NCBI GenBank assembly: GCA_951406725.2
Contig: OX597818.1
Span: forward strand, 4,092,001-4,156,000
Reading direction: 5' to 3'
DNA: 64,000 bases
Source: Octopus vulgaris
Taxonomy: Eukaryota
A model generated the notes under the pieces. It saw only the letters and a program-made list of their open reading frames with translations. It did not search any database and was not told where the DNA came from. Below are positions 6,376 through 59,300 of this stretch, piece by piece; the stretch's first letter is position 1; each line of letters opens with the position of its first letter. Both the position numbers and the translations under genes were made by a program.

Positions 6376-9300
6376 CATCATCATCATTTTTTAACGTTCG
6401 CTTTCTGTGCTGGCATGTGTTGGATAGTTTGACCAAGGGCTGGGAAGCCAGAAGGCTGCACGAGGCTCCAATCTGATCTGGCAAAGTTTCTACTTCTGGA
6501 TGCCCTTCCTAACGCCAACCACTCCAAGAGTGTATTGGGTGCTTTTTATGTACCACTGGCACAAAGGCTAGTCAGGCAGTACTAGCATCAGCCATGCTCG
6601 AATGGTGCTTTTTATGTGCCATGGGCATGGGACCAGTCAGCCGGCACTGGCATCAACCACGCTTGAATGATGTTTTTTACGTACCACCGGCATGGGAGCT
6701 AGTCAGGTATCACTGGCAACAACCACACTGGAATGGTGCTTTTTACGGGCCACTAACCCAGGACTAGTCAGGCAGCATTGGCATCAACTATGCCCAAATG
6801 GTGCTTTTTACGTGCCACCGGCACAGGTACCAACCAGGTGGTACTGTTATCAGACACGACAATGACTTGACTTGACTCAGCAGGTCTTCGCAAGTGCAGT
6901 TTATTCCCCAATCATTGAAGGGTCCTCTTAAATGGGCTGGTTATGCTGCACTGGCATACGTCATGGTTACGGTCTCAGTTTGCCGTGTTTTCTCAAGCAC
7001 AGCATATCTCCAAAAGTCTGTCACTTGTCATCGCCCCTGTGAAGCCAACATTTAAAGGTCGTGCTTCACCACCTCATCCCAGGTCTTCTTGGGTCTACCT
7101 CTTCCACAGGTTCCCTCTACTGCTAGGATGTGACACTTTTTCACACAGCTGTCCTCATCCATACGCAGCACATGACCATACCAACGCAGTCATCTCTCTT
7201 GCACACCACATCTGATGCTTCTTAAGTCCAACTTTTCTCTCAGGGCACTTTCACTCTGTCGTGTATGCACATTGATATTACACATCCAACAGAGCATACT
7301 AACTTCATTCCTTGCAAGCTTTCACATGTCCTCACTACAATGTAACATAGCTGTTCGCACACATGCGTCATAGTCTACCTTTTATTTTGAGCAAGAAGCC
7401 CTTTTGTCACCAGCAGAGGTAGGAGCTCTTTGAACTTTGCCCAGGCTATTCTTATTCTAGCAGCTACACTCTCAGAGCATCCTCCCTCGCTACTGACTTG
7501 GTCACATAGGTAACAGAAGCTTTGTAGTTTTTCCCCTGGCATGTGATGGAAGCTGTTTTCTGCACGTTTTCAGTGTTTACTGCCCTTGAGCATTTGTCAC
7601 ACACAAAAAATATCTCCCCAGTTAGCCTTCCTTTGATATTGCTGCATCTATGTGTCCAGAGCTTACACTGGGTACATCTTAAGGAGTTTCTACCTATGAC
7701 TTTTCTACAGATCATTTACCTGAAGGGATTTGTGATTTGTCTGCCTTCGTACTTATTGTGACTTTAATTTTTGCTAGATTGACTCTAGAGCCCTTCAATT
7801 CTAGACCTTGTTTTCACACCTGAAACTTCTCTAGTTCTGATAGCAACTCAGCTATTAGAGCAAGGTCATCAACATAGAGAAGCTCCCAAGGGCATCCTGT
7901 CTTGATTTCCTCTGTTATTGTCTGGTGGACTATGATAAGAGGGGGCTGAGGAGTGATCGTTGGTGGACCCCTACCCCTATCTGAAATTCTTCACTATACT
8001 CATTACCAACCCTCGCTTTACTGACAGCATCCCTGTACATGGCTTGTGCTCTTACTAGCCACTCATATATCCCTAGTTTCCACATTCACCACCAGATAAG
8101 GGATCGGGGGACCCTGCCAAAGACTTTCTCCATGTCAATGAAAGCCAGATACAGAGGTTTATCTTTGGCTAAGTACTTCTCCTGTAGCTGTCTTACCAGA
8201 AATATAGCATCAATGGTGTTTTTCCCTGGCACAAACCTAAACTGCATCTCGTCTAAACTATCTTTCTCCTGAATTAGTTTGTAATACTAACTCCAATAAA
8301 CCTGCCAGTTACCTATTCACCTATCTGGTGGACACACTAGACAAATTAACTACATCCTTGCCAGGAAAAGGGAAAGATGCCAAAACCTTCCCAGGTGAAG
8401 AATGCACCCCTCAACATAGATTAGTCATTAGCAACTTCAGGAACAGGGCTAAATGGATGTCCAGCAGACGACCAGCATGGAGAAGGGTCTGGAATTAGTT
8501 GGGCTATGACCCTCGCCATGACTTTCATTACCTGATCCAATAACTTGATACATCATCATCATCATCATTTAACGTCTGCTTTCCATGCTAGCATGGGTTG
8601 GACGGTTCAACTGGGGTCTGGGGAGCCCGAAGGCTGCACCAGGCCAGTCAGATCTGGCAGTGTTTCTACAGCTGGATGCCCTTCCTAACGCCAACCACTC
8701 CGAGAGTGTAGTGGGTGATTTTATGTGCCACCGACACAGGTGCCAGACGAGGCTGGCGAACGGCCACGCTCGGATGGTGTTTTTATGTGCCACCGACACA
8801 GGTGCCAGACGAGGCTGGCGAACGGCCACGCTCAGATGGTGTTTTTATGTGCCACCGACACAGGTGCCAGACGAGGCTGACGAACGGCCACAATCGGATG
8901 GTGTTTCTTACGTGCCCACAGCACGGAGGCCAGTCGATGCGGTACTGGCTACGGCCACGTTCGGACGGTTTTCTTGTGTGCCACCGGCACTGGTACCGCA
9001 AAGATACAAATTCCATTGATGTTCATCTATTTTGATTTGATTTGATTTTCACTTGCCTCAACAGGTCTTCACAAGTGTCACAAGAAGGAAGGAAGGTATG
9101 CACAGGTGAACTGACAACGTCCCAGGTAGGGGCCACGGGTTATGGCCTGACTAGTCTTGCCGGGTCTTCGGATGATGTTTTTATGTGTCTCCGACACAGG
9201 TGCCAGATGGATGGTGTTTGTTACGTGCCCACAGCACGGAGGCCAGTCGATGCGGTACTGGCTACGGCCACGTTCGGATGGTTTTCTTGTGTGCCACCGG

Positions 9301-10565
9301 CACTGGTACCACAAAGATACAAATTCCATTGATGTTCATCTATTTTGATTTGATTTGATTTGATTTGATCACTTGTCTCAACAGGTCTTCACAAGTGTCA
9401 CAAGAAGGAAGGTATGCACAGGTGGACTGACTACGTCCCAGGTAGAGGCCACGGGTTATGGCCTGACTAGTCTTGCCGCTGTAATTATTCATACCTAATG
9501 CATTGCCTTTACTTTTGTTAGCAGTTGACTATGGTACTACTACCCCAGTCATTGGGTATGACTCCATCATGAATTACCTGGTTTACAATGTGGGTGACTT
9601 GACTATAGCTGGCACCGCCAGATATTTTAAGCATCTCTGTGGTGATTCCTGATGGGCTGGAGGCTTTCCCTGTCATCATACCCTTAATTGCTTTATCTGC
9701 CAAGGTACTGTCAATTCGGATAGCTGGTCCCTCTGTTGAGTCAACATTCAGCAGACTCTCTTTCTCCTATTCCTTCTCTTCATTTAGCAACCTCATTAAA
9801 TGCACGTGAGCCATCATCCATGCGGACACATTTCTCTCCTATGACATCACAATTTTCTCTCACACCCTGTCTTGCAATATGAAACACTTCGTCTTTGGTC
9901 TTCACAACACATGACATTGGCAAATTTTTTCTTATCTGCTTCCCCTCTGGCTAAGTAAACCTGTCTCCAAGCTTCCCTTCTGGCAATCTGATACATTTCC
10001 CTTCTACCACCGTTATTCCAGTCCTTCCATACCTGTTTCTTTTCCTTAATGGCCCTGTCAACTACATTGTTCCACCACCACATTATCTTGGGTCGAGAGG
10101 GGACTTTGCACCATCCTCAGATCTGGTCAGTAACCCTCAACAGGTTATCCCATAGGAACCTCCAGTTGTCTTCTACATTATGTGTAGCTATATCATCTAT
10201 TTTGTCAAAAGCTTCGAGTAATACCTCTCTAAATCTCTGTCCATTTGCAGGATCCTTAAGCTTCCAGACCCTTCTCCATGCTGGTCGTCTGCTGGGCATC
10301 CATTTAGTCCTGTTCCTGAAGTTGACTAATCTATGTTGAGGGGTGCATTCTTCACCTGGGAAGGTTTTGGCATCTCTCCCTTTTCCTGGCAAGGATGTAG
10401 TTAATTTGTCTAGTGTGTCCACCAGATAGGTGAATAGGTAACTGGCAGGTTTATTGAAGTTAGTATTACAAACCATAAGCTCGCTTGCATCGCAGAACTC
10501 CAGCAGCCTGGTTCCATCCCCATTGCAGGAACCAAAACCATAGCCTCTATGTACACCATGGAATG
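6376..10565 (-). mobile_element. RTE LINE, degraded, interrupted by two insertions (8280-8491 and 8551-9478)
   Basis: (CAT)n tail and 3' UTR at 6376-6960; RT/PHD remnants 7000-8270; EN-region remnants to 10565 (GTRLLEFCDASELMVCNTNF). Sequence is continuous across the insertions (ttgatac|ctgtaatt). Confidence 0.9.
8551..9478 (-). mobile_element. RTE 3' UTR-only insertion with ~310-bp internal tandem duplication
   Basis: (CAT)n tail and ~60-bp modules; 8896-9165 is repeated at 9209-9478. Confidence 0.85.
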
Positions 10566-17565: not shown

Positions 17566-20551
17566 ATAGACTGGTAGTTAGTGACTTTAGGATCAGGACT
17601 AAGAGGACGACTAGAAGTCGACCAACATGGAGAAGAAGGGTCTGGAAGCTTAAAGACCCTGCAAATGGACAGAGATTCAGAGACATGTTACTTGAAGCCT
17701 TTGACGAAATAGAAGGGGGAATAGCTACACATGGGGTAGAAGATAACTGGACGCTTCAAAGGGACAACCTGCTGAAAGCCGCTGACCAGATCTGTGGCTG
17801 GTGCAAAGTCCCCAACAAAAATAACGTGGTGGTGGAACAATATTGTTGACAGGGCTATTAGACAAATGAAACAGGCTTGGAAGGACTGGAAGAACGGTGG
17901 TAGCAGGGAAGTGTATCAGACTGCCAGAAGGGAAGCTAGGAGGCATGTGTATTTAGCCAGAGGGGAAGCAGATAAGAAAAAATTTGCCAATGTTCTGCGC
18001 CGTGAGGATGAAAGACTTGAGGTATTTCGTGTTGCAAGACAGTGTGTGAGAGAGAATCGTGAAGTGGTAGGAGAGAAATGTGTTCGCAAGGATGACGGTT
18101 CACTTGCGCTAAATGAGGATGCAAAGAGAGAGGTTTGGAGACGCCACTATGAAAGGTTGCTGAATGAGGAAAATGAATGGGATAAAGAGAGTCTGCCGAA
18201 TGTCGACCCAACAGAGGGACCAGCAATCCGAGTTGACAGTTCCTTAGTAGTTAAGGCAATTACAAGCATGAAAACAAGGAAAGCCCCTGGCCCATCAGGA
18301 ATTACTGCAGAGATGCTCAAAATATCTGGTAGTGCTGGCTATAGCCTAGTCACCCATATAGTTAACCAGGTGATACACGAAGGAGTCATACCCAATGACT
18401 GGTGTAGCAGCATAATAGTCAACTGCTACAAAGGTAAAGGTGATGCCCTAGATACAAATAATTACAGAGGTATCAAGCTGCTGGATCAGGTAATGAAGGT
18501 CACAGAGAGGGTTATAGCCCAACTAATTAGAGAGAGAGTTAGCTTAGATCAGATGCAGTTTGGGTTCGTGCCAGGGAAAAGTACTACTGATGCTATATTC
18601 CTGATAAAACAGCTGCAGGAGAAATACCTAGCCGAAGATAAGCCCCTGTACCTGGCTCTTGTTGATATGGAGAAAGCCTTCGACATGGTCCCCCGATCCC
18701 TTATCTGGTGGTCAATGAGGAAACTAGGGATAGATGAATGGTTAGTGAGAGCTGTGCGAGCCATGTACAGAGACGCTGCTAGTAAGGTGAGGGTTGGCAA
18801 CGAGTACAGTGAAGAATTCCGGGTAGAGGTTGGGGTCCACCAAGGTTCAATCCTCAGCCCCCTCCTATTTATCATAGTCCTCCAGGCAATAACGGAAGAA
18901 TTTAAGACAGGATGCCCCTGGGAGCTCCTATATGCTGATGACCTTGCTCTAATTGCTGAGTCACTATCAGAACTGGAGGAGAAGTTTCAGGTGTGGAAGC
19001 AAGGTTTAGAATCGAAGGGCCTTAGAATCAACCTAGCCAAAACCAAAGTCCTAATAAGTAGGAAGGTAAACCAATCACAAACGCCTTCGGGTAGATGGCC
19101 CTGCTCGATTTGTAAAAAAGGCGTAGGTAGAAACTCTATAAGGTGCACCAAGTGTAAGCTATGGACACATGGGAGGTGTAGCGGTGTCAAAGGAAGGCTA
19201 ACTAGGAAAATAGTTTTTATCTGTGGCAGATGCTCAGGAGCAATAAACACTGAAAATGTGCAGAGACCAACTTCTACCACGTTCCAGGGAGAAAAACTAG
19301 AAGTAGTTGATAGCTTCAGCTGCCTAGGTGACCAAGTCAGTAGCAGGGATGGGTGTGCTGAGTGTAACTGCTAGAGTAAGAATAGCCTGGGCAAAGTTTA
19401 GAGAGCTCTTACCCCTGCTGGTGACAAAAGGCCTCTTGCTCAGAGTAAAAGGCAGACTGTATGATGCATGTGTACGTACAGCCATGCTACATGGTAATGA
19501 AACATGGGCTGTGACTGCTGAGGATATGCGTAAGCTTGCAAGAAATGAAGCCAGTATGCTCCGATGGATGTGTAATGTCAGTGTTCATAATCGACAGAGT
19601 GTAAGTACCTTGAGAGAAAAGTTAGACCTAAGAAGCATCAGTTGTGGTGTGCAAGAGAGACGACTGCGCTGGTATGGTCATTTGACGAGAATGGCTGAAG
19701 ATAGTTGTGTGCAAAAGTGCCACACCCTAGCAGTTGAGGGAACCTGTGGAAGAGGTAGACCCAGGAAAACCTGGGACGAGGTGGTGAAGCACGACCTTCG
19801 AACTTTAGGTCTCACCAAGGAAATGACTAGAGACCGAGACCTATGGAAGTATGCCGTGCGTGAGAAGACCCGGCAAGACTAGTGAGAACATAACCTGTGG
19901 CCTACATACCTTTCCTTCTTGGGACACAAAACTCCACGTGTGAAGACCCGTTGAGGCAAGTGAAAATCAAAATCAAACCAAATCAAATCCGATATCAGAA
20001 AGCAGAACCAAAATCGAAGTCAATCAACATCAATGGAAATTGCAGCTGTGGTACCAGTGCCAGTGACAAGTAAGCGAACCATCCGATCATGGCCGTTGCC
20101 AGTGCCACCCCGACTGGCCTCCGTGCCGGTGGCATGTAAAAGCACCATCCGTTCGTGTCCGTTGCCAGCCTCGCCTGGCCCCCGTACCGGTGGCACGTAG
20201 CACCATCCGTTCGTGGCCGTTGCCAGCCTCGCCTGGCCCCCTGCCGGTGGTACGTAAAAGCACCATCCGTTCGTGGCCGTTGCCAGCCTTGCCTGGCCCC
20301 CGTGCTGGTGGCATGTAAAAAGCACCATCCGTCCGTGGCCGTTTGCCAGCTCCGTCTGGCACCTGTACGGGTGGCACGTAAAAAGCACCCACTACATTCA
20401 CGGAGTGGTTGGCGTTAGGAAGGGCATCCAGCCGTAGAAACACTGCCAGATCAGACTGGGCCTGATGCAGCCTTCTGGCTTCACAGACCCCAGTTGAACC
20501 GTCCAACCCATACTAGCATGGAAAACGGACGCTAAATGATGATGATGATGA

Positions 20552-20553
<2 letters not shown>
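17566..20553 (+). mobile_element. Young RTE LINE, 5'-truncated; ORF2 17794-19374 + 19328-19882; 3' UTR with five modules and (GAT)n tail
   Basis: 526-aa ORF with RT motifs KAPGPSG, NYRGIKLL, QFGF, DMEKAFD, GVHQGS, LYADD, followed by the PHD and the C-terminal RGRPRKTW. Both ends lie in TA/CA microsatellite. Confidence 0.96.
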
Positions 20554-20589
<36 letters not shown>

Positions 20590-56380: not shown

Positions 56381-59300
56381 TCATCATCATCGTTTAACGT
56401 CCGTTCTCCATGCTAGCATGGGTTGGACGGTTCGACCGGGGATCTGGGAAGCCAGAAGGCTGCACCAGGCTCCAGTCTTATCTGGCAATGTTTCTACAGC
56501 TGGATGCCCTTCCTAACGCCAATCACTCCGTGAGTGTAGTGGGTGCTTTTACGTGCCACCTGCACAGGTGTCAGGCGAGGCTGGCAACGGCCACGGTCGG
56601 GTTGGTGTATTTTATGTGCCACCGGCACGGAAGCCAGTCGAGGCAGTGCTGGCATCGGCCACGAGTCCGATAGTGCTTTTTACGTACCACCAGACCAGGG
56701 ATCCTGGCTGGTTCAATTCGATTTCGATTTCGCTTGCCCCAACATGTCTTCGCAAGCAAAGGGGGTTGGCATGGGTGCCTGTTGTACGGTCGGATTGGTG
56801 TATTTTACGTGCCACCGGCACGGAAGCCAGTGGAGGCGGCGCTGGCATCGGCCACGAGTCGGATAGTGCTTTTTACGTACCACCAGACCAGGGATCCTGG
56901 CTGGTTCAATTCGATTTCGATTTCGCTTGCCCCAACATGTCTTCGCAAGCAAAGGGGGTTGGCATGGGTGCCTGTTGTCGGATGAGGTTCTATATCGACT
57001 TCACTTGCCTCAACAGGTCTTTGTGTCCAAGGGAGGAAAGGCATTCATAAGTGGGCTGGGCTCACTTGTCCTGCCTGGTCTTCTCACGTACAGCATATTT
57101 CCAAAGGTCCCGGTCGCTGGTCATTTCCTCAGTGAGGCCTAAAGTTCGAAGGTCGTGCTTCACCACCTCGTCCCAGGTTTTCCTGAGTCTACCTCTTCCA
57201 CGGGTTCCCTCAACTGCTAGGGATTGGCACTTTCTCACACACCTATCTTCATCCATTCTCGCCACATGACCATACTAGTGCAATCGTCTCTCTTGCACAC
57301 CACAACTGATGCTTCTTAGGTACATTTCTCTCAAGGTACTAACGCTCTGTCGAGTATGTACACTGACATTACACATCCATCGGAGCATACTGGCTTCATT
57401 CCTCACAAGCTTACGCATGTCCTCAGCAGTCACGGCCCATGTTTCACTGCCATGTAGCATGGCTGTTCGTACACATGCATCATACAGTCTGCCTTTTACT
57501 CTGAGCGAGAGGCCTTTAGTCACCAGCAGAGGTAAGAGCTCCCTAAACTTTGCCCAGGCTATTCTTATTCTAGCAGTTATACTTTCAGCGCACCCACCCC
57601 CACTACTGACTTGGTCACCTAGATAACGGAAGCTATCAACTACTTCTAGTTTTTCCCCTGGAAAGTGACGGAAGTTGTTTTCTGCAGATTTTCGGAGGTT
57701 AATGCTCCCGAGCATCTGCCACATACAAAAACTATCTTCCCAGTTAGCCTACCTTTGACATTGCTGCACCTCTTATGTGTCCATAGCTTACAATGGGTAC
57801 ATCTTATAGAGTTTCTACCTACACCTTTTCTACAGATCGAGCAGGGCCATCTTCCTGAAGACATTTGTGGATTGTCTACCTTCCTACTTATTAGTACTTT
57901 GGTTTTAGCTAGGTTGACTCTAAGGCCCCTCGATTCTAAACCCTCCTTCCACACCTGGAACTTCTCCTCCAGTTCTGATAGTGACTCAGCAATTAGAGCA
58001 AGGTCGTCAGCGTAGAGGAGCTCCCAGGGACAACCTGTCTTGAATTCCTCCGTAATTGCCTGGAGGACTATGATAAATAGGAGGGGGCTGAGTACTGAAC
58101 CCTGGTGGACCCCAACCTCTACTTTGAATTCTTCTGTGTACATGTTGCCAACCCTAACCTTACTTACAGCATCTCTGTACATGGCTTGCACAGCCCTCAC
58201 CAGCCATTCATCTATCCCTAGTTTCCTCATTGACCACCAGATAAGGGATCGGGGGACCCTATCAAAAGCTTTCTCCATGTCAACGAAAGCCAGGTACAGG
58301 GGCTTATCTTTGGCTAGGTATTTCTCCTGCAGCTGCCTTACCAGGAATATAGCATCAGTGGTACTTTTCACTGGCACGAACCCAAACTGCATCTCATCCA
58401 AACTAACTCTCTCTCTAATTAGTTGGGTGATGACTCACTCCGTAACCTTCATTACCTGATCCAACAGCTTGATACCTCTGTAATTATTTGTATCTAGGGC
58501 ATCACCTTTACCTTTGTAGCAGTTGACTAGTATGCTGCTACACCAGTCATTGGGTATGACTCCTTCGTGTATCACCTGGTTGACTATACGGGTGACTAGG
58601 TTATAGCCGACACTGCCAGATATTTTGAGCATCTCTGCAGTAATTCCTGATGGGCCTGGGGCTTTCCCTGTCTTCATGCTTCTAATTGCTTTAACTACCA
58701 AAGAATTTTCAACTCGGATGGCTGGTCCCTCTGTTGGGTTGACATTCGGCAGACTCTCTTTATCCCATTCATTTTCTTTATTCAGCAACCTTTCATAGTG
58801 GCATCTCCAAACCTCTCTCTTTGCATCCTCATTTAGCGCAAGTGAACCATCATCCATGCGAACACACTTCTCTCCTACCACATCACGATTCTCTCTCACA
58901 CACTGTCTTGCAACACGAAATATCTCAAGTCTTTCATCCTCACAGCTCAGAACACTGGCAAATTTTTTCTTATCTGCTTCCCCTCTAGCTAAATAAACCT
59001 GTCTCTTAGCTTCCCTTCTGGCTGTCTGATACAATTCCCTGCTACCACCGTTCTTCCAGTCCTTCCAAGCCTGCTTCTTTTCTCTAATAACCCTGTCAAC
59101 AACATTGTTCCACCACATTATTTTGTGTTGAGAGGGGACTTTGCACCATTCATAGATCTGGTCAGTGGCCCTCAGCAGGTTGTCCCGTAGAAACCTCCAG
59201 TTGTCTTCTACATTGTGTGAAGCTATATCCCCTTCGAGTAATATGTCTCTAAATCTCTGTCCATTCACAGGATCTTTAAGCTTTTTGACCCTTCTCCTCC

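Follow-up and report, generated by a model that had tools for sequence, protein, structure and literature searches.

Flaviviral xrRNAs are known to occur in a tandem layout. A pseudoknot is also known from the 3′ UTR of vertebrate R2 retrotransposons where, according to the parts of the paper covered here, it is bound by the R2 protein and mutations that disrupt or restore it have effects (PMC11601368). In the portion of the PMC5786205 supplement considered, RTE 5′ UTR fragments carry, by eye, a CACG-T(T/A)AAA word after a CGTG word. For octopus, RTE-2_OV was described with a 3′ UTR made mostly of microsatellite, and the word pseudoknot is absent from the part of the text covered (PMC9115989). 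Our literature search, which extended to titles and abstract starts with most subscription papers outside it, returned neither pseudoknot arrays in RTE 3′ UTRs nor the motif described below. The choice of own RNA by RTE-type LINEs is poorly described in the literature searched, despite about 10^5 copies in the octopus genome. Here we analysed a LINE 3′ UTR for which a preliminary description had proposed an array of hairpin and pseudoknot modules. The comparisons point to a motif that is real, constrained, plausibly knotted and multiplied in tandem.

The host LINE and the array in its 3′ UTR

In the window, the whole 64-kb stretch of DNA that was analysed, a 5′-truncated and frameshifted LINE ORF of RTE type lies at 17776-19882 on the + strand, as do the array and tail of the same copy; it gives an RVT_1 match (E = 1.9e-30) and ends with TAG at 19880-19882. 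Straight after the Pfam RT match comes a PHD-type finger (19099-19235; E = 6.8e-5, below Pfam's cut-off), common to many relatives. When the ORF was searched against proteins, the top named match by identity came from Octopus vulgaris (82%), and further relatives were found in Hydractinia, Mercenaria and Branchiostoma. The consensus of 30 loci has endonuclease motifs, recognised by eye, upstream of RVT_1 and in the same frame, that is an AP endonuclease followed by an RT in one ORF, and the 3′ end is the short tandem repeat (TGA)n after a conserved stem-loop, as in RTE elements. The element probably belongs to the RTE clade, as the preliminary description had it; its sequence is surely annotated as a repeat in Repbase or Dfam.

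The 3′ UTR of this dead copy covers 19883-20536 (654 nt). When the UTR was divided into 30 bins, 29 were covered by contigs from four runs and three organisms; these contigs show neither strand nor expression, and the labelling of X9 as RNA is conjectural. The terminal block is matched 16 times within the 64-kb window, and by extrapolation the genome holds roughly 1-2 x 10^5 such 3′ ends. Indeed, 400 kb of stretches chosen regardless of content contained 19 LINE 3′ ends and 28 cores, which scale to about 1.3 x 10^5 and 2 x 10^5 genome-wide, and a looser count in the first 200 kb of this sample gave 2.2 x 10^5 blocks.

Tandem-repeat analysis places an array of ~60 nt repeats at 20057-20389, as previously proposed, with five units made of a hairpin (GCCAG-N6..11-CTGGC) followed by a core (20098-20389). 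Module 1 (20098-20146) has its hairpin at 20098-20118 and its core at 20122-20146, with one G-U in stem 1. Module 2 (20164-20204) consists of hairpin 20164-20179 and core 20183-20204, and module 3 (20222-20264) of hairpin 20222-20237 and core 20240-20264, both with a stem-1 mismatch in this copy; loop 3 of module 2 has 3 nt only, as in 21 of 30 loci of the subfamily. Module 4 (20282-20326; hairpin 20282-20297, core 20301-20326) and the terminal module (20345-20389; hairpin 20345-20360, core 20364-20389) complete the array. A sixth, degenerate core stands first, upstream, at 20056-20080; it was recognised by eye and its stem 1 is broken, likewise in the subfamily consensus. Decay of the window copy amounts to a stem-1 mismatch in three of the five cores, a G-U in two and the 3-nt loop 3 in one. 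At the terminal position, at least 3+4 pairs are kept in nine of nine subfamily consensuses. Further downstream are a conserved block (20405-20448), common to an octopus SINE-like family and to non-autonomous elements of other animals, a terminal bulged stem-loop (20497-20536), common to RTE-type relatives in other animals, and the (TGA)n tail (20536-20555, from tandem-repeat analysis).

The hairpin-loop variants and the TGTGT/GCACA stem 1 named in the preliminary description are all present in the sequence. Three of its other details have to be read differently. Of the 30 loci in its subfamily, just one has the register shift of stem 2 to CGGT/ACCG (8966-8990), against 30 of 30 with the non-pairing ACCA form. 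The supposed co-extension of stem 2 to GGGTG/CACCC is one-sided, the extra C being the first base of the linker in eight of nine subfamilies, with any loop-1 base. Finally, the two copies taken to have one module result from an internal deletion (24750) and from a 5′ truncation (29460).

Other rearranged copies were observed. At 8493-10322 of the window another copy lies between the inverted pieces of a broken young element, in which a UTR segment of ~310 nt, also present in subfamily C loci, is duplicated, and at 56593-56978 the 3′ UTR of another copy contains a 193-nt tandem duplication with two cores inside. Twin priming would produce 5′ inversions like those found within the UTR of three copies (L341, L444, L008).

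Constraint on the core and its predicted fold

Consensuses were built for LINE subfamilies A-J, ten in all, and for a SINE-like family, S. From thousands of candidates, 40 loci were scored for each and the best 30 retained. The young subfamilies A, C, D, E, G and I have a core of 5+4 pairs together with the hairpin; the hairpin is missing from the old subfamilies B, F, H and J, in which a junction C results in 3-4 plus 5 pairs.

Inserted copies decay neutrally, so that a test of selection needs the source lineages. For the same reason equal substitution rates among young copies are uninformative: CpG sites had changed by 22-32% in every structural class (stems, loops, spacers) of the inserted copies. 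Per-copy substitution rates, like the per-copy pair tables (241 of 465 parsed places, partly misregistered), mostly mirror neutral decay and family structure. We therefore counted changes on a seven-subfamily tree (A, B, D, F, G, H, I), from which J was left out, as were C and E for their small number of ORF ends. On this tree the terminal core has 13 changes in 25 sites, or 0.52 per site, about the rate of first plus second codon positions of the neighbouring ORF (0.54), against 1.26 at third positions and 1.69 at four-fold sites; the UTR gives 0.8 for the linker, 0.27 for the downstream block, 1.1 for the next segment and 0.23 for the terminal stem-loop. Poisson tests of the core gave P = 2e-4 in the comparison with third positions and P = 2e-3 in that with the UTR segment on its 3′ side. 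Pairwise, the subfamilies differ at 43/382 in the core against 171/415 at four-fold sites, all these values being drawn from few, related and consensus-based subfamilies in which tail swaps or gene conversion could inflate the apparent conservation. Since the core changed so much less than third and synonymous positions, it was under purifying selection in the source lineages. It is less constrained than the two elements downstream, the block and the terminal stem-loop. Among 22 distinct young modules, differences reach 0.14 in the core, 0.10 in the hairpin stem, 0.24 in the spacer and 0.50 in the loop, which bears out the earlier remark that the hairpin stem is largely constant and its loop variable; within subfamilies, cores and spacers are equal (both 0.13).

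Could the core be a neutral passenger, a slippage duplicate beside a selected tail that owes its conservation to recent tail swaps or gene conversion? Units do expand like ordinary minisatellites in dead copies, the motif is missing from the relatives in other animals and broken units are tolerated. However, the flanks diverged more (linker 0.8, downstream 1.1) than the core (0.52), and with both sides more diverged a simple tail swap is unlikely; we consider this possibility quite improbable.

We then considered the fold. The core has the compact H-type geometry previously proposed, with stems of 4-6 bp, a loop 1 of 1-2 nt, a loop 2 of 0-1 nt and an A-rich loop 3. Such a geometry is unlikely by chance: among 3000 dinucleotide shuffles of a 68-nt unit, 24 gave a Watson-Crick H-type knot with at least nine pairs, and none did when an A-rich loop 3 was required. 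In the 20 real modules nearest their consensus, 88% of cells pair. The outer pair of stem 1 takes C-G, T-G, T-A and A-T across modules, the A-T form being a non-CpG double change present in 24 of 30 subfamily-B loci. Covariation beyond CpG decay is thus seen at one stem-1 pair, but at none of the four stem-2 pairs, which never changed on both sides in 20 modules representing few independent lineages. A second double change in stem 1 comes from unit H1, which has no stem 1, and in subfamily B one end pair of stem 2 changed on both sides to give a mismatch. The covariation score was equalled by 14 of 500 shuffles, a figure that the tool warns is not a probability. As for TGTGT/GCACA, suspected from the start of being CpG decay, both changes are indeed of CpG type, but a young subfamily with copies 97-99% alike has this form in all of its 30 loci; it was thus present in the source element and did not arise by decay after insertion. 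Owing to the G/C change at the junction, stem 1 cedes one pair to stem 2 between young (5+4) and old (4+5) subfamilies, and nine pairs are retained, although three of the four bases would pair at that position anyway.

RNAalifold predicts stem 1 alone. A rough energy, with no coaxial or A-minor terms, is -6.9 kcal/mol for the pseudoknot versus -9.0 for a nested hairpin, some 2 kcal/mol apart, and folding of the whole UTR is no better than that of shuffles (z = -0.12). Because GTG and CAC each occur twice in it, the unit repeats itself internally and can accommodate other pairings equally well; an outer hairpin is longer in F1 and H2. At gathering score, Rfam has no match in the whole window; below threshold it gives bxd_5 alone (E = 0.41), outside the modules. 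On balance we lean slightly towards the view that the knot forms.

Alternatively, the motif may be constrained as a sequence and not as a knot, either through a single hairpin or as a linear site to which a protein of the host or of the element binds, perhaps on the DNA itself. Its CACGT/CGTG words presumably resemble bHLH-PAS sites. In the single-hairpin form, stem 2 with a CACGUAAAAA loop would be the folded element in old subfamilies and stem 1 in young ones. This would agree with loop bases that are as invariant as stem bases, the unpaired TAAAA included, with the lack of stem-2 covariation, with the better score of nested folds, and with fixed incomplete units, as stem 1 is missing from H1 in 21 of 30 loci and subfamily E has hairpin-only units in 29 of 30. 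It accords less well with subfamily C, which keeps 5+4 pairs despite the loss of both CGTG words, with the AGTG/CACT of subfamily B and with the nine pairs retained through the junction swap. We regard this alternative, whether as single hairpin or as linear site, as rather unlikely.

Unit number and the 5′ ends of copies

The unit number, counted with a fuzzy matcher that misses degenerate cores, is a subfamily trait, mostly fixed, from 1 to 5. It is 4-5 in 30/30 loci of subfamily A, 4 in 28/30 of C, 3 in 30/30 of I and in 22/27 of H, and 1 in 22/32 of J. Variation in number among copies, as the preliminary description had it, was not confirmed. Young subfamilies tend to have more units than old ones, and in F and H the cores follow head-to-tail at ~25 nt. 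When the 36 consensus modules of A-I were read by hand, 26 had at least 4+4 pairs, three had a 3-bp stem 1 and seven were broken; the broken ones are all non-terminal (0/9 terminal versus 7/27), a difference that is not significant (P about 0.1). Subfamily E has one unit without stem 2 in 26 of 30 loci.

The hairpin can be aligned to the core. In subfamily D none of 500 shuffles aligned as well, and for G1 and G4 just 2 and 6 of 500 did; the likeness is lost in A, C and I by the same shuffle test. From these alignments the hairpin appears to be a diverged core. Slippage duplication is the likely origin of both the hairpin and the extra cores, and both are probably redundant for the most part.

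Satellite-like expansions of UTR units were noticed at single loci (L453, L136, L138, L158, L030, L472), with runs of up to 50 cores at ~26 nt, 87-nt units repeated 14-19 times and one 58-nt unit. In subfamily B (L071-L100), core, linker and block are duplicated as one, and its UTR has a pyrimidine-rich stretch of ~1 kb upstream.

The preliminary description held each unit to be independently functional, as an Xrn1 block or in translation control, with a number that tunes activity. The greater unit number of young subfamilies would fit, as would the conservation of non-terminal cores (0.15 against 0.24 in the spacer and 0.49 in the loop). Of 207 copies, 117 were of young type (at least 84% identity), and we looked at where their 5′ ends fall, leaving out central search matches. 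These ends are spread along the UTR, with 11 in the terminal core against ~5.6 per bin (P = 0.03, uncorrected), an excess that would again suit independent units. However, the 11 ends are scattered over 16 positions within the core, and there is no pile-up at its 5′ edge, used here as an indirect proxy for an Xrn1 stop; the exonuclease resistance once suggested is not supported by these 117 copies, which show no sharp pile-up. Moreover, both the three-way junction and the class-3 scaffold, as defined in the parts of PMC12397905 covered, are absent. The young and abundant subfamilies C and E fixed broken units, which speaks against a functional variable number, and B, F, H and J do without the hairpin, so that a hairpin-plus-knot module is not obligatory. 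We judge independent function of each unit quite unlikely.

We tentatively prefer another explanation, to which we give somewhat less than an even chance, namely that the core is a knotted accessory for the grip of the element's RT or for protection of its RNA, and that the additional copies and the hairpin are redundant products of slippage. The knot, its action as RNA, the protein binding and the redundancy are parts that we infer. The terminal stem-loop with (TGA)n, 107 nt past the last core, would prime insertion, as in stringent LINEs. One core would fold as an accessory RNA helping the element's protein to hold or protect its RNA, a role drawn by analogy with the R2 3′ UTR knot, and additional units would arise from slippage. 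Against this explanation, family S and the relatives in other animals transposed without any core.

The downstream tail and relation to known structured RNAs

Relatives from metagenomes were represented by the best 80 of 399 confirmed loci, from 6 of 64 collection parts (199,092 bases). In these 80 loci a profile of the core gave a single match (L307, E = 0.011), outside a LINE UTR, the best reversed control being at E = 2; at 2340-2380 of that locus, a core-like word with an inserted hairpin lies in another animal's repeat. Where at least 120 nt were available downstream (46 loci), a microsatellite begins at most 150 nt from the protein match in 26, lies farther away in 5 and is absent from 15. 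The UTRs of these relatives are short and free of modules. Several end in the terminal stem-loop too; comparison of two groups of them (14 sequences) shows two T-A/G-C double changes in it, and it is likely the core site recognised by the RT.

A profile of the downstream block had 17 matches at E<1 in the 80 loci, against one in reversed controls. In L287 the block comes directly after a twister-P1 match (E = 6e-7, below gathering score), in an element that ends in an RTE-type tail, and for this reason it probably derives from an RTE 5′ leader. In 30 octopus 5′-end loci, where alignments are poor, neither block nor twister was found at a consistent site upstream of the ORF. The LINE tail would thus be a mosaic, made as we infer of filler, cores, leader-derived block and ancestral stem-loop.

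Recurrences of the block in non-autonomous elements were seen at L287 (1814-1918, - strand), L298, L300, L302, L307, L308, L317 and L319. The octopus block could fold a second knot (GGTTGG/CCAGCC plus GGCA/TGCC), whose second stem is missing in other-animal copies. A hammerhead reading of the block was rejected, its CTGATG-like word not being conserved across subfamilies and Rfam giving none. Pattern scans gave no match to the block in viral contigs and none to the core in prokaryote genomes; four matches of the core pattern in viral contigs were set aside, three lying in apparent phage coding sequence and none having a retrotransposon context.

Family S (L361-L390) is old and SINE-like, with a head that resembles a tRNA, a (TG)n middle and the word CCTTGGG, which is of CORE type as given in the part of PMC5786205 covered. 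The head was recognised by eye; ARAGORN, run on 10 of the 30 loci, returned no tRNA. On 20 of the 30, Rfam gave no twister, and nothing but microsatellite miRNA noise and one tRNA. The family has the downstream block and the terminal stem-loop as in the LINE, and no core. A knot array would for this reason raise avidity for the LINE's own RNA: the LINE would have added and multiplied the cores, upstream of the tail it shares with the SINE, as pseudoknots to which its protein binds, and they would win the RT back from the SINE in a dosage-tuned cis-preference. We find this improbable, and the array as a tuned device is unproven; if true, it would be a dosage-tuned device without counterpart in the literature searched. 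If the array is one useful motif plus slippage, it would be a modest addition to known structured LINE tails. The natural variants (5+4, 4+5, broken units, 1 to 5 copies and a coreless SINE-like element) constitute a ready-made mutant series.

The LINE can be compared with four described systems, each through the parts of the papers covered. As in viral xrRNAs of classes 1-3 (PMC12397905), a compact predicted pseudoknot lies in a 3′ UTR; unlike them, the core has 26 nt only, neither the three-way junction with double pseudoknot of classes 1 and 2 nor the P1/P2 scaffold with L2B docking site (at least 40 nt) of class 3, no Rfam match, and no discrete genomic 5′ ends. A search of the PMC5786205 supplement gave no exact match to block or core, and no structure is proposed in the text portions covered. 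The bipartite RTE-5′/RTE-3′ SINE bodies described there (Kojima 2018, PMC5786205) resemble the non-autonomous elements in which the block follows twister-P1, as in L287; unlike in that description, the leader-type block sits here in the autonomous LINE's own 3′ UTR, which appears to be a mosaic, with a 5′-leader-type block moved to the 3′ end of an autonomous element. The terminal stem-loop and (TGA)n, common to the SINE-like family, are like the tails of stringent-type LINE/SINE pairs (PMC3747384), in contrast to which a long insert of repeated cores separates the stop codon from the tail. Finally, like vertebrate A-clade R2 (PMC11601368), the octopus LINE has a small predicted knot that lies 5′ of a terminal stem, next to an A-rich strand. 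R2 has a single knot, which a 6-nt hinge connects to the 3′ stem and which structure and mutants have proven (PMC11601368), whereas in the octopus LINE, an element of another clade, the core ends at 20389 and the stem-loop starts at 20497, and the predicted knot recurs in tandem, at a distance of 107 nt from the terminal stem-loop.
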